A program made the translations under genes and the position numbers. Shown piece by piece: positions 16,035-63,008 of a stretch of DNA of 64,000 bases (positions within the stretch are counted from its first letter, which is position 1; each line of letters begins with the position of its first letter). The notes beneath the pieces were generated by a model, which did not search any database, was not told the origin of the DNA, and was given only the letters and a program-made list of their open reading frames with translations. This stretch comes from Hydrolagus colliei (Eukaryota), in NCBI GenBank assembly GCA_035084275.1, contig CM068757.1, positions 5,890,001 to 5,954,000 on the forward strand, read 5' to 3'.

Positions 16035-16260
16035 TAAAACGCAAAATACTGCAAACCTAAAACAAAAACGGAAGTCGCTGGGAGCACTCAGCAGGTCAGG
16101 CAGCATCTAAGGAGAAAGGAAAGCGAGTCAACATTTTGGGTCCATGACCCTTAGTCAGAATTGGGGCATGTTGGGAGAGAGAGGCTTGTAAGGAGAGCGG
16201 GTGGGGAGGAGAAAGGGCAAGGAAGACAAAGGAGAAAATGATAAAGCTGGAATTGACATA
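16035..16260 (-). mobile_element. Penelope-like fragment, same family as 30853-31352, with a decayed hammerhead at 16126-16162
   Basis: cactcagcaggtcaggcagcatctaaggagaaagg...gggtccatgacccttagtcagaa. The following purine-rich stretch also matches 30990-31070. Confidence 0.7.
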
Positions 16261-28081: not shown

Positions 28082-30951
28082 GAAGTGGATACAGGACAGT
28101 TAATGTATTTTAAAGTGAATTTTTCAACACTTTGCTACTACTAATATTTTGTGCCACATGACTGGACTGTAATGATTGAGTGAGGACCTTTTTCAATTCT
28201 CCTATCACTGCGACACCAAATGTAGCTTGTGGCTGGATTGTCAGGGAATGGACTTAGCTTTGAGACGTCGATAAGATGTGAAAAGCGCTATATCAAATGC
28301 GAGGATTATTATTATTAAATCCACATCAGAGTAAAATGTTCAAAAGGGTGAAGCGAGACACAGGACTCTTCCCTGAAGCAAGCAGTCAATAATTCTTAGT
28401 GTCCCTTCTAATCTGGTCCTCTGCTGCTGCTTGGGTTTTAAACTCACAGTGAGCAGTTATGCATCCTTGGTCAGTGTTGCCATCCGCAGAAGTTCCATCT
28501 GCACACCTTCAGAGGATTCCATTTCTTTTCGTCCCCCCTGGGCTAACTGGGCTGAGAACTGCAGAGCTGCTTAAAGAACTGACAGCTATTTAGGTTTAAT
28601 GACTATCTTAACTCAATACATAGAAAAGCACGGATGATGTCAGGATCTCGCCAGCTCAAAATGGGAACTGGGGGAGGTGGGAGGGTTGGGGGTAGGAGGG
28701 TGTCCCATAACAATTGTCAAGTGCATCAATTGCCCCCTTTATTAAAAGGGAAGATATATTCTGTTGTCATAATAAAGATTATGAAAACTTGTAGTTTGAT
28801 TGGTAAACTTGATTTAACTTTAAAACCTTCTTTGTGTGGGGGCTCTTACATTCCCTCTTAATTTGAGAGCCAGTTTTCAGCAGTTCTGAAAAAGGAAGAG
28901 CCTCTACATTAAGGCCAAATTTAATCATTATTTTACAAATCCACTGCTATAAATCTTTTTTAAGACGCAGCAGTTTTACGGATGATATTTCAGGTCATGA
29001 GTACCTAAATTTGATTTTAGTGACCTGGAACTCAGAAACAATGGGAAAATAGAAATAGAAAAAAATATTCTACAGAGGCGGAAAGCTTCCGTGTGTGGAT
29101 GTATAAGACAAACACAGGGTCAACCCATACCCTCTTCCTGAAATAGGACCATTACTCACCGCCTCAAGTTAAACACAAGGAATTATCACTTGAGCAAGAT
29201 GCAGAGAGCTTCCTGTTGGACATCTAGGGCCTTTCACACCATAGGGCACAAGGCACTGGATAATCTAAGAGAACAACAACAACAACTTGCATTTAGATAG
29301 CACCCTCCACACCATACATGATGACATCATCATGGTCAGACGATGGAGGGCAGGGTGAAAAGACATTAAAGAACAAGAGTGAATACACAGAGCATTTCTT
29401 TTCTGAATGAATTCAGCAGCAGATGGGAGGTCAATTTCAGAAATGCTAATAGACCACCATGATTTAGGATCCATGTGCTTCACCAGATGGCCTACAAGCG
29501 AACAGCACAACTGATGCAGTGGCAGGCCATTCAGACAAGAACTTTGTAGGCTTGAATTGACAGATGTAACTGACCAGCAATAGGAGCTAGGTCGATAGAG
29601 GGGGAAATTCAGCCAGTATTTCTGTCTTTCGATTGCTCAGACAGATGATCCCTGCTGTATAGGGTCCACATAGATGAGGACAGGTTAAGTGGTGGAGGAG
29701 AAGGAGAGGAAGAGAAGGGAAAACCGCAAAATAAAATTGATGGTGAATCCCACCCCCAAAAAAGGTTCTATCGAACCAGCCCCACTACATAATATAATTA
29801 ACCCTTAAATGCTCTACTCCCGTAGGATTATTAACCATCTCGGTCTCTCAACAAAAGTTTAATATGTACTGTAACACTCATCAACTTCCCACAAAGCAAA
29901 GAAAACATTCTTATAAGTTATGCTAAAAGTTACTAAACTAACAACCGTCACGGTAAACATAATTTCAAATGGTTATTGTGTGCTGAAAGCAGTCGGTGAA
30001 AAGTAATTCACTCAATCACTACATGTTAAGTACACTCTCTGCTCTCACTGATAAGGCAAACACAGGCACTTTCTACCAATATAAATCATTTCCATATATA
30101 TTTTCGAAGAGCTGAAAGATAGGGTATTCAAAGCCCTTGAAACAGATTTATCCATAAGTTAGCTCACTTTGTTACCCCACTGGTTTTAATGTCAGCAATA
30201 TTATAAGGACAATTTTATTTCCAACTACAGTAGCATAGAAATAAACACTTAAGATTCAAAACAAATAATTTTCAATAATTTTCTTCACCTCAATGAATGA
30301 TTCTTTTGTGACTGATCTTGGCCCGAATGTGATGCAGGGACTCAACTATTGTAATGCCTTAAAATTGTTTGGCCAATTGCAAGGGCCACATCACTGACTG
30401 ATGCAATTCCATAAAATGAACAAAAGTGCTTTCTTCCCATAAAATAAACAGTCAATGCACTTTCCAATACATTCTGTGAAACACGTTGAGACATCTCGAA
30501 GGCGTGATGAGGCACTTTATCAAATGCAAGGATTATTATTATTATTGTTATTATTGTTTCTCGTTTACACAAAGCACCTGTACCAAGTGAAGAGCTGTTT
30601 GGGCAAAATAAGATCCTGTGATAATTCCTCTCCCACGATACCAATTCTGCATATTTTAGACCCTGTGGTTTGCACAACCTTTGGCATGAAAATCTACCCG
30701 TTACCTCACAAACTATAATAAATCTCTGTTGAAAGACGGAAAACCTGTTAACAGTGGACTGTAATAATAATAATCCTTGCATTTGATATAGCCATTTTCA
30801 TGTCTTCCAGACATCTTAAAACACGTTGCAGAATATACTGTAAAGTGAACAAAAAGGCAAAATACTGCAAATGCTGGCAATCTGAAAGAAAAACAGAAAT
30901 CGCTGGGAACACTCAGCGGGTCAGGCAGCATCTATGGAGAAAGGAAAAGCA

Positions 30952-30988
30952 AGTCAATGTTTCGGGTCCAGGACCCTTCATCAGAACT
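30952..30988 (-). ncRNA. Minimal type I hammerhead ribozyme motif, copy A
   Basis: Minus strand AGUU-CUGAUGA-A-GGGUC-cug-GACCC-GAAA-CAUU-GACU. Core, stem II and stem I are present. Stem III is altered by a probable CpG decay (ACGU to ACAU). Confidence 0.65.
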
Positions 30989-31312
30989 GGGACGTATTGG
31001 AGGGAGAGACTTTTAAGAATTGAGAGAGACAGTGGAGGCAGCACAAGAAAGACAAAGGAGAAAATGGGGTAGAGGGCAGGAGATGATGGGTTGAAGAAGG
31101 GTTAATGTTGTGAAACAAATGGAGAAATTGCAACAAAACTGGGGAGAAGAGATGTTAAGAACATTAAAACAAAGAGTGGGGGGGGGGAAATTGGCAAAGA
31201 ACAGGCAGATCAGATGGTTCCAGAAGAGGGGGAAGGTGAGCTGTTTCAGGCGATAGGTTATCGTTGGGAACACTCAGCAGGTCAGGCAGCATCTATGGAG
31301 AAAGGAAAAATA

Positions 31313-31349
31313 TGTCAACGTTTCGTGTCCACGACACTTCATCAGAACT
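31313..31349 (-). ncRNA. Minimal type I hammerhead ribozyme motif, copy B
   Basis: Minus strand AGUU-CUGAUGA-A-GUGUC-gug-GACAC-GAAA-CGUU-GACA. Palindromic ACGU stem III and GUU cleavage triplet. Confidence 0.7.
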
Positions 31350-33400
31350 GAGGGTGTGAACTGAAGGGTTCTGACGCAGGGTTCTATTTATGTTACAATG
31401 ATTATTATTATTAATCCACAGAAATGCAGGTGCACCAATTATTTTTTTCTCTCTGCTTACATCTTAAGATTTCAAAGTATCTGGCTAGTAAAATAGCTGG
31501 AAATTTAACTCAGAGACTCAACCAGTGTGTTCTCTTGATGATGGATTAATGCATTCAGTCCATATTTCTCGGCAAAGCAAGATTGCCACCAAGTGGCATC
31601 ACCTAGGAACACCAAGATTTTTTTTAACCAGGGATCATTGGATCCTTATCAATGGACACCAAGTTAAGCCCATTCCTGACACTGCCAGGACAGGTGGACT
31701 TCAGAAGCATTATAATACCTCCCACAGCAGTATAAATATCTTGGGTGTGATTATGAATTCCACTGGATCCACTCTGTATATCTGCAGAAGTCTGAAATTA
31801 GACATTTGTGTTTTTAATGTGCTCTGATAGACAATGCCTCCGTAATATAAAAAAATAATCCATATCTTTTTAAAATAGTGCCTTTGACAGGACTTTTCAA
31901 AGTGCTTCACAGAAACTATTGTATAGTGGCTGTATTTTGCAAGCAAACATGGCAGCCAATTTGCACAGAGGAATACCCTAAAAACAGTCATCAGGTGCAT
32001 TACTAATTTGATCTACTGGACAGTTGTCAGTAGCGCTCTGAGACGTCGTCCGGCGTGGAGGGCGCTTTATAAATCGAAGTTGTTGTTATCTCTGTTCGAA
32101 TAGTCCCTCTAGTATATCTGTAACCTCCACCTGAAGAGACATCTCACCCGAAGGACTGCAACTCCAACAATCCTGCCCTCTCCCAGCCAGGTTGCTTCTG
32201 GCAATAAAATAAATACACCATTCAGTTACCCGAAGTGACAGATAATTCACAGAAACTGAATGAGGAAATTTGTCACTGGGCCGCTAGATGGAGCACCCAC
32301 GGTTAGTGTACTGTTCATTTTGGCTAATTATTGAGCAATCTTACAGGTTATGGCTTCTTCTGAATACTTTAAACCTAAACTTTGGAACTCGCTCCAACTT
32401 AATTCTTATTCCATGGGATCTCAGTGGCGGTAGCTTTGCTTCTGTGCTCGCGTGCCTTCCAGATTTTTCAAGATCTGTTCTTATCTCTCATCCTTTCACA
32501 GACTATTAATTGCCACATTTTTACTACTTGAAAATTGTGTTTTAATTTTCATTGCCTTGTCTTCAAAGACTTTGAGGTCTGTGAGAGATGCATTTAAATA
32601 TGTTTTTTTTAATTAAAGCATTAAATAAAAATTAGGTATTAATTTTGACCCAGATATGTGAAGCTAACTACTGTATGCACCATAGCTCCAACAGATGTTA
32701 GCATCAGTGATCAACTTCAGATTGCAGTCAGGACCACAGCAAGTAATCCAGTTTTACCGCACATTATCACCCTCACACACATTCAAACATGTTACTGATG
32801 AGAGAGAGGGGCCTTGTATTAATTAACTTGAGTCTTTGTTCGTCTCGACAAAGCCTTTCATGAAAACAAGAGCAAAACCTCGAAACAACACGCACCTGAC
32901 AGGTTGCTGGAAGCAACTCCCTTTAATGGCCTACAAATGATCCAATCATACTGAAGTCACTTTAACTCAAGGTAACTTTTACCGCAATGTGCTGTAACTT
33001 CACCCACCTGTCGCAACCGTCGGTGCACCCACATTTAAACAGTTAGATCAGGAATGGCCACTATCACAGCGCACATCTCTGTGGTGTGCATAACTGAAAC
33101 ATAGGTGGTCTCTTTGGCTTGAGGTTTCTTCGATTCAAGCGCCAAACAGCACCATCTGCATTAACTCCCATGTTACTTCAAATTCTTCAGGATTAAAACA
33201 ATGTCTGCTAAAAGCTATCAAAGCTAAATGGAATTAAAGGATGCAAAGAAATGTATATTATCATAACAATTAGATATGAATAAATTGTACCTTCTGTCCG
33301 ACATGCTTGCTGGTGGGATTTTGCTATGAAAGTGTGTGCAACTGTAGAATCAACTATAGAATATAGAAAGTCTGTGCCAGCTCTTTGAAAAGAGCTATGT

Positions 33401-33704
33401 GCAGCTTCTGTAGCTCAGTGATTAGAGCACTCGCCTTACAAGCGTGAGACCTGTATTCGAATCCAGATATATCAGGGTGAAACATTGGGCAAGTTTCCAA
33501 ACTCCATGTGCCTAATAATAATCTGTCCAAAAAATCCACAGTAGTAAAAATTGAACTGTTTGTGGGAAACTGCTGTGTGCAACTAGCTGCTGCGTTTCGC
33601 CCACAAATATACAGTCAATTCGCTTTATAGTATATTCTGTGAAGGGCTTTGAGACGTCAATAAGATGTGAAAAGCGCTTTATCAAATGCAAGGATTATTA
33701 TTAT
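33401..33704 (+). mobile_element. tRNA-derived SINE, 5'-to-3' complete copy of the internally deleted form
   Basis: A box (tagctcagtg), B box (gtattcgaatcc), body, and a LINE-like tail ending atcaaatgcaaggattattattat. Confidence 0.9.
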
Positions 33705-36700
33705 GTAAATCAATCCCAATCCTCTGTGCTCTCTCCATAGCCCTACAAACTTGTCCTTCCCAAATGATTATCTACTTCTACAGAATCACAGAACTAAACA
33801 ACACAAAAATGAATTTAAAGGTGTAAAGAATTATCTCAGATTGATACAGAAACCATATGGACTTCTTGATCACCATTTTGATGTTTTCCTGGAATCTGTA
33901 CTGCACAAAATCTGTTGGATAAATTTATGATGTAAAACAGGTGATTGGTTGTTAGGACATAAATCAGGTGATCTAGAAAACCCAATGGAAGGGTCAAAAG
34001 TTGAGAGTAGTGAGAATGGGAGAGAGAGGCAAAGGAATCTGTGAACCAGAAATAAATTTGAAACATGACATAAAGTTGAAAACTTTCAAGTTCGGAATGA
34101 AAAGTGTTCATTCTGTTTGAGTGGTTTCACACAACAAATATACACAGGTCAGATGCACTTTGCCTAAACAAATGCTTCCTAAAGTTCCCCCAAAAAGTCA
34201 CACTGAGAAGCGCTATTGGGGCAAATGAAGTTTTTGTGAAATGTTTTCATGGTTGATAAGACAAACAGCCTTCTTGAAGTAATTTTATCGACCAAACAAT
34301 TCAGTTCCTGGTGGGGTTTGGGTGTTTGGAATTTAAAAATCAAGGCAACAGATTAGCAGAATCTGACTCCCCCGCGCTCTCACACTGATGTGATAAAAGT
34401 GCTGTATCAATGCAAGGGTAATTGTGACTACATTGTTCTATGACATTGGTTTCCAAGTTTAATTAACTCACTTATGCTGGAAAAATAAATCTGTTTTTAT
34501 TTTAGAGAAACATAACTTATCAAAAAATTAAGTTACAATGTGCATAAGTGTGATTTTTTCACCCACTACACACATATTTTAAGGCAATGCATCTCCAATA
34601 CATTCGCTGGAACAATTATCCTTTGCCACCTACCTACATCACATTTTAGATAATAACAAATAGAGAATAGTACTTTGCCCACAGCAACAGATTCATTACA
34701 CGGAGACAATTGAGCACAATAAGTCTCTTCACCCACTTGAAGCTGTCTAGATTACAATGCAGTAGATGACGGTCTTTACTCTCATTCAGATTCACCACAG
34801 ATTCAAATAGTTGTTTGTGGACTGTTGCCAACATTGATCAGCTGCCACTTTTGCCTATGTGTCAGTTTGCCGCATTTTAAAGTAGCTCACTGGGTGAAGC
34901 GTTTTGAGACACTGATGTGATAAAGGTGCTCTATCAATGCAAGGATAATTATGACTGCATTGTTCTAAGACATTGGTTTCCAAGTTTAATTAACTCACTT
35001 GTGCTGGAAAAATAAACTCGATGACATTACACTGAATGCAGTATAATGAATGCTAAGCCCCTGGTACTCTATTGAAGAAAATCGTTGTTTTACAAATGTA
35101 CACCATGCATAATAAAGGTGTTTGACATTTCGTATCATCCACCAGCATCCTGGTCAAATCCAAATTCAACATATAACACCTGTAGCTTGCTTGCCAGGTA
35201 GGAAAGGGATTTTTACCACGTTCTTCAGTGAAGACAAAGGTCTTGCAGAGATGAGCAGAAGCAAAAAACACCTAGCTTTTACAATTGCAGAGGTATATCT
35301 ATGGAAACTGAAGCCTGCACAGACGCTGTCAAATAATGCAATTTAATGTGCCCTTTCACGTCTACATTCTCAGCTTCCAGTACTTCAATGCTTTTCAACC
35401 CTAATATTTCAGTGTTTCAATCACTGCATGAGATTCAAGTCAGCTTGGAACAGATCAATGAGAAAGTCAATGGCAGACTGCAGCACTTAAAACCTAAAAA
35501 AAATCCTGTCAAAAATTTCCTGAATCAATTCCAGGAATTCTACAAGCACGACCCAGGCCACTATCTCTGCTTCCAGATGATCACGTTCCATTGATTTATA
35601 TCTTGTGTGAACACCCGCAATCCTTTCTTAAATCTGTTGACTGAACTGATCGTGCCTGGAATGTACCTGAGTGTTGCCACAATCTACTCAATTCGAACAC
35701 AACTAATGTGTGTACCGGCAAACATTGGTGAGTGAGGAACCATCCCCAAAATGCATTTGATAAAAATTCCTCTTTCTTCTAAACCCAGTGAACGTAGTAT
35801 ATGCAGGTCTTTATTTAAACTCCAACAATCGCAATATGTGTTCTCCACCTTTTGCATTCACCGAACAGAGCATATTTTTACCATCTGTCACGCTCAGATG
35901 AAGTGGCTGATCTTCCCATCAACTGCACAACATATTCAAAACATTTGGCTTCACACAAAGGGGCCGTTGACAGGTAACACAGCAATAAAGATAAAAGTCT
36001 TTGTGCGGCTCATGAACAATTAAAAAAAAACACATCACCAGAACAGAACCACTTTTCTGCCTGCGATGAAGGTTGATTCCTCCCTAGAGTTAAAGAACAA
36101 AACTTTGTTAGGGAATAGTTTGAGTTATCAGAAACTCCTTGAATGCATTGCACCAGGAATAATCTCGCACATCTGTATAAATGTTAGAATGTCTGTTGCT
36201 TTCAAACAAGTTATGCAAAGGCATCAAGTACAGATGTTTGTGTGCATTAACATTTAATTCATCTGAAGCTCATGAATACTACCCGAACACCCATAATTTA
36301 TTCACAACTTCTGCTGTAAATTCACATTCTTTTGACAAATTGTGTTTGCACTGAGTTGAACATCATCTGCTGCTGCTTGGACTTACTTCTTAGAGAAATA
36401 CCTTTTTTCCCAAGAGCATGCTTTGATCAATTTCTCTATGTGGCTTGTCTGACAATTGCATCATTGAATGCCTCCTTACGATTAGATTGCAGGTTATCAA
36501 CACAAATTGCTACTTTAATTCCTGCTCACTAGATGGTGAAAATGGTGCAATTAATCTTGGGTAAACTTTTTTTCCTCTCTTGCTCTAGTCTCGGGTATGT
36601 CACGTTAGCAACTCACTTTGCTCTTCTGATGAGGAGATCACTGGAACGCTGAGATGAGATCACATATTTATATACACGATGTAAACCAGTCAAAGCCCAC

Positions 36701-37016: not shown

Positions 37017-37022
37017 TTTATT
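37017..37022 (-). terminator. Probable IFTAP polyadenylation signal AATAAA
   Basis: tttatt on + strand, about 190 nt past the IFTAP stop codon. Confidence 0.5.
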
Positions 37023-37211: not shown

Positions 37212-37385
37212 TTACAGGTCAGAATCTCCTAGTTGTATTGAGTGACGTTTAGTACTGTTGCTTGACTGATTTGACAAAGTACAAATAGTTTCAAGTTCAG
37301 CTTCAGTGTATTTTGGCTTGAGAGAGACGCAGTCGTAATCAAAGTCTTCATCCAAAGTGAAAGGCTGGACTTCATCTGTCTGTAC
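37212..37385 (-). CDS. IFTAP: IFTAP last coding exon: VQTDEVQPFTLDEDFDYDCVSLKPKYTEAELETICTLSNQSSNSTKRHSIQLGDSDL*
   Basis: Matches the conserved C-terminal motif DEVQ.F.LDE.FDYD.V.L..K (human GDEVQLFSLDEEFDYDNVMLTSKF). Strong acceptor ctctttgttttttccatcAG|. TAA at 37214-37212. Confidence 0.93.
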   Translation of the reverse strand, partial: VQTDEVQPFTLDEDFDYDCVSLKPKYTEAELETICTLSNQSSNSTKRHSIQLGDSDL

Positions 37386-38268
37386 CTGATGGAAAAAACA
37401 AAGAGGCAGGTTTTATGATGACAGCCCACTATGAGTAAGTGACAAGACCTACTAATGTCACATCACAGGATTTGACATCAAGATGTCACAAGTAATGATG
37501 AGTGAACGCACGTCTGAATCAACATTAAATGCAGTTACGGTTTTTGCAGGAAACAATCATTCAATTTGTAAACTCTACTGTAGAAAACTTCACAAATTTT
37601 CAACATATTTCACATCAATTGTAAGATTATTCCCATTCTAGAATATCAACCAAGGGTCAGAGATTGTGTCTTTGTCATTTTAATAACTTTGATAATTACC
37701 ATTACCCTTAATGTTGTCTAATAATTTTATTGTACAAGACAAATAAATATTTAACAAATGTATTACAATATGGATAAATGAAAACTATTAACTGAATTAA
37801 CTGAGCGCAAAGGATCACTGGGGTCAGATCTGGATCAATTATACCACCAGTCGGTGCACTAGTGATCATTCTTCAATTCAATGTGTCATCTACATACTTA
37901 CCACAAGTCAGTCAATCAGGAAATTCAGGAGACATCTAACCCATTAAATAATTTTTCAATCGGATGCCGCAGTTTTCCCTTACTGTGTGTCCCTGAGATT
38001 ACTCCAATTAGCCTCAGTGACCATGAGCTGCAGAGGTGACGGGAAATTGGCATCAACGGATAGAAACATGTCCGGTTTTCAGTTTCGGATGTGCTGAGCC
38101 AAAGGGCTAATGCAAATTCAACATTAACAGGCAGTTTGGATCTGAGTTATACCTAAGTTTGATTTCGAACTGGACTATAAAGTAGTGATGATTACCATGA
38201 AGTAAAAACACAAGCTGTTCAACAGGAGTGGCTCAAAGTTCATTAAAAAAAGTATGAAAGCCACTTAC

Positions 38269-50721: not shown

Positions 50722-51231
50722 CTATACATGGAAGCCAAACTCATTTAATGAAAAAGCCATTTGGCAGCTCGCGTTTTGTAGCTACTAAGCTTGTCAGAGG
50801 GCAGTCTGAGCAAGGCAACCGGTCAAATTTCCCACTGACTAGCCTATCTACTATAATATTGCAATAAATTTACCAATTCATATTGGTTATATCAATATAA
50901 AAATCTTGCATTTGATATAACACCTAGAACATTGAAACATCTCAAAGCACTTTACACTGATTACCATAAAGTACAGTATTGTATAGCGAATATATTTGGT
51001 ATGAACATGGATAACATGGATACATTAATGTTACATAAACAGCCAGGAAGTGAATGGCCAAGTTATCGAGAGGATTATTGTCTCGGACATCATGAGAAAC
51101 TCAAAAGCAGATAGGACCTCGGTTTCATTCAAGAATGCAATGGAGTGCCCAAATCAGATGACCAGTGTTTGCAATAAACACAGGCATTACTTAAACATGG
51201 TACTGTACTATACTTTCAAAGATATACATAC

Positions 51232-51331
51232 CTTTATTCAAGTAAAGAAAGGATTCCAGAAATTCATCATACGTTTGCTCATGGCTACTGCAAAATCTAT
51301 CCAAAGCATCTTGAATTATTTCCTTCTCCAT
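51232..51331 (-). CDS. IFTAP: IFTAP/NWC first coding exon: MEKEIIQDALDRFCSSHEQTYDEFLESFLYLNK(G)
   Basis: Matches the recalled human C11orf74 motif [25 protein letters not shown]. In-frame TGA upstream of the ATG. Donor G|GTATGT at 51231. Probable acceptor ...cccctctgacAG| at 51386/51385. Confidence 0.9.
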
Positions 51332-54300
51332 TCTTTTCAATTCCAATCAATTCCAATGGGACAGCGGACAACAGCAGATTTGGCTCTGTCAGAGGGGGGT
51401 GGGAAAGTACAGCAGTAGTTATGTGGAAAAGTAATGTACATTAATTCCATTAAGTTGTATCAAAGCAGTGAGAATATACTTCTCAAAAGCTATTGTTTTC
51501 TAGCACCTGCTCTATAATATAATTTTCACCTGAGGTTCAGACTGATGTGAGGGAGCAGATTGGATTTGTATTGCCTGTCGCACCAAATAACGTGACATTT
51601 TGAAGAATCCCAAAAGATTTCACTACGTTCGTATCGACCTACATGTCAACAAGCCTGTGCTTCCTGCATGTTCAGAGTGAACATTGAAACTAGTTAAAGG
51701 AGAGGCCCCCAGGACATTTTTGAAATTTAGAATTTACTGAGAATTTACATTAAAAAAATCTGTGTTCATTAGTTAAAAAAACAGCAGGAGTGGGGATCCC
51801 AAATCATTTTGCACTGTTTGATCTGTACTGCAATTGTGTAAATACCTTTCTTTTGAAGCATTTTCTGAAAGGGTTTTCACCAGTTGACGCAAGCATGAAA
51901 TAAGTTTTGAGTTGTATGGAGGAAAGTGGGTTGATGCTATATATTTAACTTTCTTGTGATGCTATTCACACAATGAATCAATCAAAACTGAAAGTGCAGT
52001 ATAAATGGGGCATTAAACATCACAGCAAAAAAAACGTGCATAAATGAGGCCATACAAATATTGTAAAAATGGCAATTCAAGGATAAATACTGCAGATGAC
52101 TAATTCTAACAAGATTTGGGTGAAAGGGAAATAGGCTCAAATAATACTGTACCTGTGGGATATGTTTTTAAAATCTAGTTTGGTATGGCATTTCTAATAT
52201 AATTAGCAATTACTCAAGAGACAAAGTTGGAACTTTAAATAGTATGTTACACTCAACACTTACAAAGCCCCAAAGCAAACATTTAATATAAATGAAAAGT
52301 AAAAAATACACTATACGCACAAACTTACAACTCACTGGGTTTCTGAAGTTTGAAATGCTTTTTAACAACCGAAACCAGGATGTTACATTGCAAAGCGGTT
52401 GTCTGGCATTTTAAATCATAACATATGGTTACTATTGGTATTAAAGACCTAACTTCTGCAAATCAATTCTCTAGGGAATTTCACATGAACCAGCACAAAA
52501 TGTTTACACAAGGCAGCATGAGTGGTTTATGCAAAACAAGGTGGTTTTCTAGCAGGAAACATTCTTTTATCTATCGATTTGACTTCTACCACTGATCATT
52601 GTGGTAGAGTAAGGATTAGTAGAATTGGTGAATATCATCTTTTTAAAAATAACGCATCTGAAATGCAGCTTCATTATACCCATCGATCAGTGGCATGATC
52701 AATTTATGTACTTATCTCAAATACATCATTGTAGTTTCTGATCTCTGACTGGGTGGCATGACAACTGGCAAGCATGCTGAAAAGACTCAAGAATGTTAAC
52801 AGATCCTGTTACCAAGTAAGTGAGACCTTACACTTCGAACTACGCTTACAGTCACCTTCTCACTGCCTCCAGCTCAGCGTCAGGCTCCACCACTGTTACG
52901 CGCTCCAAGACGCTGTCTTGCATGAACAACTCTAGATAAATGCTAATTATTGATGTATTTTCCTCTTGTACTATTCCAGCAATATTCTCATAAAAGTAGC
53001 ATAGCAGCTTTCGCAGTCAAACAGGAAAAATTATGTAGCTAAGCACAAATTTGGGTAACAATTATGATAGCAGATGTAGAAGTAATAAAATTGGTAAAAC
53101 TATGAGCAGAAGCAGGGGGTATTAAAAATACAGACTGTAGTATAATGTACAACAGAACTATCATAACAGCTGAAATGCATCTTTCTGATCCCAAGTTGCT
53201 GATATTCTTCAGGGTGGTTGATAGAAATGGCACATTAGCACAATGCCAGAGTACTGCTGGAATAATGCAAGGGTAAAATACAAAACTGCAATTCAATGAC
53301 TGCAAAAAATGGTGCAGGATATATACTCCAAAACTCTCCTCCCTATGAGGAACACATCTTTTTCCATCCTGCACCACCATAATCAGATGCAAAAAACTTC
53401 AACTTCCATGAATTCAATCAACTTCGTCGTCTGGCGTGGAGGGCGCTATATAAATCGAAGTTGTTGCTCTTGTTGTTGTGTTTATACATCAAACAGTAAT
53501 ATTAAAAAGAGATATTGATGGTGGTGGGCAGAATAGTAACATCAACAACTTGCATTTATAGAGCGCACTTCACACAGTATCTTGGAGCGTTAAACACAAA
53601 TAATGTTTGGGAGCACTAAAGTATTTTCAACTATATGGACTATATTGATCAATACCAATTTTAAAACAAATCATAAACTAAAAAATTTAAGTTTACGCAT
53701 AATAGGGATGAATCAAGCAGTTAACGGAAGCTTCTTTTCTATATGTGGTCTAAACCCAAGCTTTTTCAACATCTGTCAAAGCTCCCTTTCTTGGAATAGC
53801 TCTTCAAACAGCAACAACCACAAACAAATTGTAAAGTTTGGCAAAATGCAACATAAAGAATATGAAACAGCCAGGGAGAGTTAGTGTATATCTTGCTCAG
53901 TGTCAATAGAAACTATCATAAGAAACCACACCTTAAAAGTTACCGTTCACAGTGATTAAGTTTTAACAACAATGGAATGAAAGAATGCAGCTTTTTTACT
54001 ATTTTAAGACAATTGCTAATAAATCACAGCACCACAGTTGTGCTGTGTCAAGTCATTTGCATTTACGACAGCAGCTTGGAGTTGGGAATTTACTTTTAAT
54101 GAAGCCACACCGATCAAAAACCTCTTGAAAAGGCCACGACTGAACGCACCTCATCACTCCCAGGATTTGAGGTAAACTCACTTAAATTACTTAAAGGGAC
54201 AATAACAAGCTTTTAATAACCACTGCCTATTTTAGATGAATGTGAAACATCCAGAAAAACACCTCAATGCAAGCGTGAGTTAAAAGCTCAGCTCATCTGG

Positions 54301-61227: not shown

Positions 61228-61298
61228 ATAATAACAACAATCCTTGCATTTGATATAGCGCCGAATCGCTTTGTTGAGACGACATCTCAAAGCGCTTA
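61228..61298 (-). mobile_element. SINE tail fragment between the CpG promoter and the RAG2 acceptor
   Basis: aataacaacaatccttgcatttgatatagcgcc...gacatctcaaagcgctt. Similar tail fragments occur near 5380, 8025, 13841, 28255, 30450, 30765, 31880, 38630, 42090, 50900, 55215 and 59640. Confidence 0.8.
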
Positions 61299-61399
61299 AT
61301 GGCTAGTATTTGGTGGGCTTTGGGCTCTTTTAATTTCTTGAGAGCGGACCAATTGCAAAATATCCTGCCGTCTTTTGCTCAATTTGTCTGTTTTTACCT

Positions 61400-61445
61400 C
61401 ATTTTTTTAATCACGTCTGTATGTCTCTTGCTTCCAGAGGCAACA
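61400..61445 (+). other. RAG2: Splice acceptor and short 5' UTR part of the RAG2 coding exon (exon starts at 61438)
   Basis: Pyrimidine tract ...gtctcttgcttccAG|aggcaacaATG, with AG at 61436-61437. This matches the known RAG2 layout of a non-coding first exon plus one coding exon. Confidence 0.85.
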
Positions 61446-63008
61446 ATGGCCCTGCAAATGGTTTCAGCCATCGTCAACGGTTCACTGATGCATCCCGGGT
61501 TCTCGCTCATGAATTTCAACGACGAAGTGTTTCTTTTTGGCCAGAAAGGATGGCCGAAAAGATCCTGCTCCTCCGGAGTCTTCCTGCTCCGCGTCAAAGG
61601 TCAAGACATGAAACTCAAAGCAGTTTCGTTCTCCAGTGACTCCTGTTACCTGCCACCACTACGTTGTCCTGCAATCACTCATTACTCAGATCCCTTGGAA
61701 TCCAAAAGCCCTCTTTACCTCATTCATGGCGGCAGAATGCCGAACAATGAGTTGTCTGATCTACTGTACCTCATGATGGTTAGCAATACCGGTAGTAAGA
61801 AAACGTTGCTCCGTTGCATTGAAAAGGATCTTAAAGGAAATGCCCCCCAAGGAAGATATGGCCACACCATTAATGTAGTTCAGAGCAAGGGACGAACCAT
61901 GTGCATCTTGGTTGGGGGTAGATATTATCGACCTCCTGGACAAAGAACCACAGAGAACTGGAACAGTGTGGTGGATTGCACACCACATGTATACATGATA
62001 GATTTGAGCACCAGCCACTGCACCTCCCACGTGCTTCCAGAGATCAATGAAGGGTTTTCATTCCACGTGTCGGTAGCCAAAAATGATACTATCTACATAT
62101 TGGGTGGTCATTCCATAGGAATGAATCACCGTCCTCCACGACTGCTTAGCCTACAGGTCGATCTGTCAGACCCACATCCGATTATCAGCTGCACAGTCCT
62201 CAACAACGGCATCTCAGTATCAAGTGCCATCGTGACCCAGGCTGGCAGCAATGAGTTTATAATTCTGGGGGGCTATGAATCGGAGACTCAGAAGCGAATG
62301 GCTTGTAACACCATCCGGCTTGAAAACGACAATATTCAGATCTTGGACAAGGAACCCCCAGCGTGGACCAGTGACCTCAGAGCCAGCAAAAGTTGGTTTG
62401 GCAGTGACATGGGAAACCGAGCGGTATTAATAGGCATTCCAGGGGAGAACAAGCCGGATATGGGTGAAGCAAATTACTTCTACATTGCAACTTTCGGACA
62501 GCCAGAGGGGAGAAGACGCATCCTTTCCAGCCAGGAATCCTTCACTGATCCAGAGGAGTCTAGCGCATTCGAGGATTCCGAAGAATTTCGCTTTGTCGTT
62601 GAAACCCATGATTATAGCGACGACGAAGTTTACTTGGATAACGGTGATGAGGAAGGTTACTGGATTAAATGCATTGTAACCTGTAGCATAAACGTCAACA
62701 CTTGGGTCCCTTACTACTCCACAGAACTCAATAAACCGGCTATGATCTTCTGCTCCAGTGGAGGAGGCGGTGGGCACTGGGTACACGCCCAGTGTATGGG
62801 TCTCTCAGAGTTAGAGCTGATACAGCTTTCTCAGGAGAAGACCAAGTACTTTTGCAATGTTCATTGTATTGAGAAAGGACTTGAAACCCCGCAGAGGAAG
62901 ATAAAGATAATGAAACGGACGCCAATGAAATCCCCGCGTAAAAAGTCGCCGGCCAGTCTGAAGAAGACGCCGATGAAGAAGAGCTTTCTGAAGAGACTAT
63001 TTGAATGA
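61446..63008 (+). CDS. RAG2: V(D)J recombination-activating protein 2, 520 aa, single coding exon
   Basis: Translation MALQMVS...PGFSLMNF...FGQKGWPKRSC..GVF, with kelch-repeat motifs (YLPPLRCPA, IHGG, GRYGHT, GGHS), an acidic hinge (FEDSEEF), a PHD finger (GYWIKC..TC...PAMIFC...HWVHAQC...YFCNVH) and a basic C-terminus ending SFLKRLFE. The ATG at 61446 (context caacaATGg) aligns with the known RAG2 N-terminus and follows a splice acceptor. Confidence 0.98.
   Translation: MALQMVSAIVNGSLMHPGFSLMNFNDEVFLFGQKGWPKRSCSSGVFLLRVKGQDMKLKAVSFSSDSCYLPPLRCPAITHYSDPLESKSPLYLIHGGRMPNNELSDLLYLMMVSNTGSKKTLLRCIEKDLKGNAPQGRYGHTINVVQSKGRTMCILVGGRYYRPPGQRTTENWNSVVDCTPHVYMIDLSTSHCTSHVLPEINEGFSFHVSVAKNDTIYILGGHSIGMNHRPPRLLSLQVDLSDPHPIISCTVLNNGISVSSAIVTQAGSNEFIILGGYESETQKRMACNTIRLENDNIQILDKEPPAWTSDLRASKSWFGSDMGNRAVLIGIPGENKPDMGEANYFYIATFGQPEGRRRILSSQESFTDPEESSAFEDSEEFRFVVETHDYSDDEVYLDNGDEEGYWIKCIVTCSINVNTWVPYYSTELNKPAMIFCSSGGGGGHWVHAQCMGLSELELIQLSQEKTKYFCNVHCIEKGLETPQRKIKIMKRTPMKSPRKKSPASLKKTPMKKSFLKRLFE

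Follow-up and report, generated by a model that had tools for sequence, protein, structure and literature searches.

A pair of hammerhead motifs downstream of IFTAP in Hydrolagus colliei is probably made of two decaying pieces of a Penelope-like retrotransposon

Introduction

The minus strand of a 64,000-nt stretch of the Hydrolagus colliei genome (GCA_035084275.1, contig CM068757.1, positions 5,890,001 to 5,954,000; hereafter the window) contains two minimal hammerhead motifs 361 nt apart. The initial annotation of this DNA placed them in a Penelope-like element, took a double change in stem II of one copy as compensatory, and suggested that a transcript through both could form a dimeric ribozyme that cuts read-through RNA from the neighboring gene IFTAP. 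Is the pair a functional ribozyme, or what a retrotransposon has left behind? The role of hammerheads in Penelope-like elements (PLEs) is described as unclear (PMC8557442). Our analysis indicated that the locus probably consists of two decayed fragments from a single high-copy Penelope-like retrotransposon, which were likely joined by a template jump and now likely form a neutrally decaying, non-functional pair.

Two minimal hammerhead motifs in the window

The window was searched with a structural descriptor consisting of the core, an optional extra base, a stem II of at least 4 bp, GAAA, a short stem III, UH, and a stem I of at least 3 bp. Two matches were obtained, exactly motifs A and B (Table 1). 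Among dinucleotide-shuffled windows, 3 of 200 gave one match and 0 of 200 gave two, which equals 0.015 matches expected per shuffled window. Both motifs contain the core CUGANGA...GAAA...UH with stems I and II, and both have an unpaired base after A9 and the G10.1–C11.1 pair. Their places, strand, and spacing, as well as the predicted cut of motif B, were confirmed as first annotated. A scan of 29000-33500 with the Rfam models (E ≤ 10) gave five matches, none of them to a hammerhead family, and the covariance-model check suggested with the initial annotation was negative in this respect.

Table 1. Positions of the hammerhead motifs, element pieces, and IFTAP exon in window coordinates
Feature	Position	Strand	Remarks
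IFTAP last coding exon	37212..37385	-	stop codon 37214-37212
Inverted micro-fragment of element 5' end, 14 nt	31368..31381	+	begins with G(-3) itself; a short way upstream of copy B
Copy B, short Penelope-like fragment	31260..31350	-	family positions -5..+85; 84 matches and 7 mismatches to family reference
Minimal type I hammerhead motif B	31313..31349	-	AGUU, CUGAUGA (core, 31345-31339), extra A (31338), GUGUC-GUG-GACAC (stem II, 31337-31325), GAAA (31324-31321), CG, UU, GACA; predicted cut between 31317 and 31316
B-A junction, 14 nt	31246..31259	-	no alignment to family reference
Copy A, 5'-truncated element end	30852..31245	-	352 matches and 35 mismatches to family reference
Minimal type I hammerhead motif A	30952..30988	-	AGUU, CUGAUGA (core, 30984-30978), A, GGGUC-CUG-GACCC (consensus stem II), GAAA, CA, UU, GACU; stem III ACAU; predicted cut 30956/30955

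The two motifs differ in their stems. Motif B carries a private double change in stem II (G9T/C19A) and a T32A change that shortens its stem I to 3 bp; stem I of motif A is 4 bp. The palindromic ACGU stem III expected of PLE hammerheads was found in motif B, as in the family majority. It was absent from motif A, where the palindrome was lost through a CpG-type change. The extra A had been likened to a natural core variant of the viroid CChMVd. It is indeed present in both motifs; it is no rarity, since PLE minimal hammerheads are described as consistently having an extra base after A9 (PMC4209133).

The repeat belongs to a GIY-YIG Penelope-like family

A first-look search of the 1.0-Gb genome returned 6,315 candidates for the repeat. 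A 31-nt tail pattern had 2,113 exact matches. A general motif pattern, which took in the main family too and is usable solely as a general count, had 2,363 matches, a lower bound on the number of motif copies. The 100 general-pattern matches listed fell into two subfamilies. Stem II of the second abundant subfamily (loci L266-L275 and listed matches) reads GGGUU-GUA-GACCC with a U-G wobble; it is changed on one side only, from C-G to U-G. Several of its copies start at the same 5' hot spot as the main family (see below).

Upstream of the copy-A-like sequence, other family copies run into the 3' end of an ORF. The RT and GIY-YIG frames come from these longer genomic copies, as the window holds non-coding end pieces only. 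Their translations contained a GIY-YIG nuclease, a CxxxxCxxC linker, and RT motifs, with all frames broken; the CX2-5CxxC linker between RT and nuclease was read in five loci (L006, L008, L021, L161, and L164). A direct Pfam search gave a weak GIY-YIG match (E 0.036, below the cut-off) and no match for two RT pieces, and a PDB sequence search gave no RT match. A 206-aa RT piece had 161 homologues at E ≤ 1e-10. The homologues at E ≤ 1e-37 carry PF00078, and 14 of the 120 listed carry PF00078 plus PF01541. Among the matches listed, the best named RT homologues were from sharks and rays, with 50-61% identity. One near-full-length copy (L180, G000:C2:60824607-60826306) has the pLTR with the hammerhead upstream of the ORF. 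Over L180:1-1700, its pLTR is 93% identical to the reference, about 230 nt of another repeat is inserted directly after the tail, and the likely start codon is located at about +53, 3' of the hammerhead.

Judged by these sequence features, the repeat is an endonuclease-bearing PLE, and the linker motif would make it Neptune-type. This placement is tree-free: the CX2-5CxxC linker defines the Neptune motif, and Nematis shares such a linker (PMC8557442). The family resembles the Neptune clade as described by Craig et al. (2021, PMC8557442) in the order of RT and C-terminal GIY-YIG, in the CxxxxCxxC linker, and in 5' truncation, partial tandems, inverted 5' pieces, and an optional tail of about 30 nt; the window differs in carrying only non-coding end pieces. 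Together with the pLTR hammerhead, the last three of these are features of endonuclease-bearing PLEs, and PLE insertions normally take the form of partial tandems that include inverted pieces (PMC8557442). In the 90 tail-anchored loci, pieces were found on both strands in 45, and pairs covering the core were direct in 2 and inverted in 17. The assignment of both motifs to minimal type I hammerheads within the pLTR of a PLE was borne out.

Copies A and B are two pieces of the element

In family coordinates, the first C of the CUGA core is 0, and cleavage is predicted between +28 and +29. Copy A extends from -255, the ORF stop codon, through the hammerhead to the tail (+132). The 5' edge of copy B coincides with the 5'-end hot spot of the family. 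The two copies have a 91-nt repeat of 90% identity in common, and each is about 8-9% diverged from the reference. When a 541-nt query was searched, 40 matches were scored, and the 39 outside the window covered copy A only, ending at or inside 31249.

These pieces suggest the following course of events. Priming of the element RT would have taken place internally, at the T-rich tail of the RNA, and the enzyme would have copied copy A back to the ORF stop. It may then have jumped onto another template near +85 and, within a few bases past the hammerhead core, run off at the RNA 5' end, producing copy B. The 14-nt B-A junction may be the scar of the template jump, and the inverted 14-nt micro-fragment may be a fold-back or jump scar. 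By eye, the flanks of the A+B unit showed no target-site duplication, and an origin of both copies in one insertion event is probable rather than proven. The hammerhead, if it worked at all, would likely have done so in the parent element RNA as a weak, protein-assisted dimer.

Other family sequences were also observed. A third fragment is located at 16036-16240 (-) in the window, covering positions -82..+132 with 83% identity to the reference. Two pyrimidine-rich stretches of the tail, 30900-30945 and 30870-30885 (-), end in AG and resemble splice acceptors. On the opposite strand, family copies have a donor-like GTGAGT just past the cut site.

The double change in stem II does not exceed chance expectation

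The consensus stem GGGUC/GACCC with an intact core occurs in 1,049 genome copies, whereas the copy B stem GUGUC/GACAC occurs once, in the window. Copy B as a separate subfamily was ruled out by this count. Changed stems were tallied by hand. For stems changed on the 5' side (first 100 of 133), 80 were single changes, 7 were partner doubles, and 13 were non-partner control doubles; for the 3' side (first 100 of 115), the numbers were 76, 9, and 14, with one triple. Under independence, 6.7 and 7.7 partner doubles are expected per 100, respectively. For T/A doubles, independent mutation predicts 0.31 per genome, and the probability of at least one is 0.26.

Covariation was measured by pair counting on an alignment, not by a purpose-built covariance model. 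The alignment contained 47 sequences, namely the two window copies and 45 of 53 spanning copies (eight were left out for indels). The observed score was reached by 65 of 500 shuffles and the two-sided pair count by 250 of 500. The survey of stem II covariation proposed with the initial annotation gave no signal in the family, an outcome that had been named there among those refuting the proposal. With one copy against 1,049, 0.31 expected, and no covariation among 47 copies, selection on the double change is not supported.

The core was examined in the same way. The catalytic G8 and G12, both in CpG, were mutated in 22 of 90 cells, compared with 75 of 270 at the remaining CpG sites (p = 0.59). 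Core positions outside CpG were mutated slightly less often than the other positions (14/405 versus 52/900, p = 0.10). All 11 core bases were kept in 20 of 45 sampled copies, and the core plus the palindrome in 7 of 45. Both window copies retain all 11 core nucleotides, at a locus that was chosen for looking intact. Family copies decay close to neutrally, and the copy B double change is what chance gives in a family this large. In a high-copy repeat, chance is expected to yield a single "compensatory" change.

A templated (quasi-palindrome) origin of G9T, C19A, and T32A was also considered and found no support. G9T was present in 3 of 81 T32A copies, the window included, versus about 1.2 expected at a rate of roughly 1.5% estimated from the stem-change counts. 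The G9T/C19A pair in copy B is likely to be two independent substitutions.

Folding of the pair and its position relative to IFTAP

Folding programs leave the hammerhead core unmodelled, and the energies given here serve for ranking only. In 38-nt isolation, stem II formed in both motifs (P 0.89-1.0). In a 431-nt context, its probability was 0.006 in motif B and 0.065 in motif A, and the dimer cost 24 kcal/mol over the free minimum. The helix energy of the A+B dimer was -6.4 kcal/mol versus -14.7 kcal/mol for a near-consensus homodimer, which itself was about 10 kcal/mol above its own minimum. In the A+B dimer, ACAU of motif A gives a C-A mismatch in the shared stem III. GUU and AUU triplets are cut more slowly than GUC.

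Pfam placed IFTAP exons at 51230-51343 and 37260-37388 on the minus strand. This and the stop codon agree with the earlier statement that the pair lies about 6 kb downstream of IFTAP on the same strand. The first AATAAA after IFTAP is at 37022, 5.7 kb before the hammerhead pair. From the IFTAP stop codon to the hammerheads there are four AATAAA and nine ATTAAA. The IFTAP mRNA likely does not include the pair, and the locus would likely cleave little or no host RNA.

Alternative explanations of the pair

The view that the pair is a selected, working dimeric ribozyme cutting IFTAP read-through RNA could point to the two intact cores, to the stem II pairing retained in copy B, and to the location 5.7 kb beyond the first AATAAA on the same strand as IFTAP. 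Some activity is on record for related motifs: dimeric PLE hammerheads had low activity in vitro, a Schistosoma motif giving no cleavage as a monomer and low cleavage as a dimer (PMC4209133). Of nine Xenopus dimer elements, one cleaved strongly, but the other eight did not cleave (bioRxiv 10.64898/2026.07.22.740005), and the anole PAc hammerhead cleaved only with added element protein (PMC11167929). At this locus, the predicted dimer helices are weaker than those of a near-consensus homodimer and the palindrome of motif A is broken, stem II would rarely form in context, the double change is at chance level, and four AATAAA and nine ATTAAA precede the pair. A working dimer from the A+B transcript is disfavored by these models, and its selection for cutting IFTAP RNA appears highly improbable.

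Two other origins would be neutral too. Copies B and A might be separate neighboring insertions, or the ends of a full-length element whose middle was deleted. Direct neighbors with unrelated DNA between them do exist (L204 and L153), the near-full-length L180 has a pLTR upstream of its ORF, and the similar divergence of the two copies fits any same-age origin. We consider this unlikely, as only 14 nt separate B from A, the inverted 5'-end micro-fragment adjoins B as jumps within one event predict, and the 3' end of B, at +85, does not reach the positions near +100 and +130 where copies usually end. The 361-nt spacing might instead be the unit of a non-LTR retrozyme family seen as a dimer. The mean consensus length of such elements is given as 363 bp in one chondrichthyan (bioRxiv 10.64898/2026.07.22.740005), and the best named RT homologues listed here were from sharks and rays. 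However, only three same-strand core pairs 346-376 nt apart were found in the genome, and the other two have different break points; with the 541-nt query, no other scored match (0 of 39) extends across the B-A junction; and there is no array, with the tail beyond +85 lying outside the unit. A 361-nt retrozyme array was largely refuted by the lack of a recurrent tandem unit, and this origin is extremely unlikely. The retrozymes described by Li, Clavereau, and Pollet in the same preprint are alike in being pLTR-derived, with two direct type I hammerheads in about 360 nt; they differ in that no repeated unit family or array was found here, and the junction was found only at this locus.

5' ends of family copies pile up just before the hammerhead

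The ends of family copies were mapped (end-map loci L032-L151 and L206-L265). The tail-anchored set consisted of 93 copies in 90 loci on one contig, the first 93 of 100 listed out of 2,113. In this set, 38 of the 93 copies had their 5' edge in -6..0, with the mode at -3 (13 copies); 61 copies reached this hot spot, and 38 of them ended in it. The end rate in -6..0 was 0.089 per nt versus 0.004-0.011 in other upstream bins (binomial p about 1e-27). At the predicted cut (+29), 0 of 93 copies had a 5' end, and 2 of 93 ended in +27..+31. Eleven copies had 5' edges at +21..+26. Among the 17 copies with edges in +16..+36, 9 had an adjoining inverted partner by eye, which is consistent with a free cDNA end folding back.

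The peak was also seen in hammerhead-anchored sets, which are blind to ends inside the motif: in 27 of 39 copies from other contigs (40 were fetched and one duplicate flank was left out), and in two more sets, in 19 of 30 (partially overlapping the first set) and 9 of 20. Target duplications of 10-13 nt ending 0-1 nt before G(-3) were found in five copies. Two clusters of 3' ends were seen, near +100 and at +126..+132; at the cut site (+28), a 3' end was found in 0 of 89 hammerhead-anchored copies.

As 5' edges lay just before the core and none at the cut, the retrotransposed RNA likely started with an uncut hammerhead. The template RNA likely began 3-4 nt before the core, and copy B would be one run-off product of such RNA. 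A constant spliced first exon before the hot spot was looked for and none was seen; several copies abut the target duplication directly. The hot-spot sequence, compared with the initiator consensus, fits an initiator and also a splice acceptor. [quoted passage not shown] An antisense-template model has also been proposed (PMC3846280) and would read the hot-spot edge as a priming site.

In several inverted copies (L107, L121, L073, L115, and L101), the G(-3) end is linked to the region of the ACGU palindrome, a junction that a cDNA end folding back on itself would give. Two inverted fragments (L093:1889-1944 and L138:1404-1441) end at +29, beside the predicted cut; they may have arisen by fold-back or may derive from cleaved RNA.

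A broader scheme can be offered tentatively, although we hold it to be rather doubtful. The transcript would start 3-4 nt before the core, and the abundant copies of 105-135 bp would be "strong-stop"-like run-off cDNAs made on uncut RNA. The ribozyme would cut the downstream pLTR copy, leaving the same 32 nt at both RNA ends as a retrovirus-like repeat for the RT to jump from the 5' end to the 3' end. If true, this 32-nt terminal-repeat reading would give PLE hammerheads a concrete role.

Comparison with known systems

The motifs resemble the PLE minimal hammerheads described by Cervera and De la Pena (2014, PMC4209133) in the short stem I, the unpaired base between 9 and 10.1, the G10.1–C11.1 pair, the palindromic 15.2-16.2, the pLTR location, and the thousands of mostly single genomic copies. 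They differ in the spacing of the window pair, 361 nt and no intervening ORF as opposed to about 3 kb, and in the loss of the palindrome from one window copy (A). The consensus families covary in that report, whereas the variation within the family does not covary here.

The green anole has a Poseidon element, PAc (Frangieh et al. 2024, PMC11167929), which is similar in having two adjacent internal priming sites that define the tail, a hammerhead near the ORF start, uncut RNA as the insertion substrate, and no ends at the cut site. In PAc, the start codon is located in stem II, whereas here it is likely at about +53, after the hammerhead. No pile-up of 5' ends just before the hammerhead was found in the main text of that paper. 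Such a pile-up was not found described in the PLE literature searched; Lunse et al. and supplementary figures may bear on it.

On its own, the locus matters little, being one among thousands of decaying copies. The pile-up of ends just before the ribozyme, with the cut site avoided, bears on the question of what PLE hammerheads do. The end map points to a sharp RNA 5' end, and the uncut-RNA template described in vitro for anole Poseidon (PMC11167929) would extend to genomic insertions of a Neptune-type element.

Other features of the window

RAG2 was placed by Pfam at 61278-63008 (+), divergent to IFTAP (-), which is the usual vertebrate arrangement. A tRNA-like match of 32 bits at 33404-33471 (+), beside a repeat tail, is probably the head of a SINE. 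A direct repeat of 92 nt with 93% identity is present at 34382-34473 and 34909-35000, 527 nt apart.
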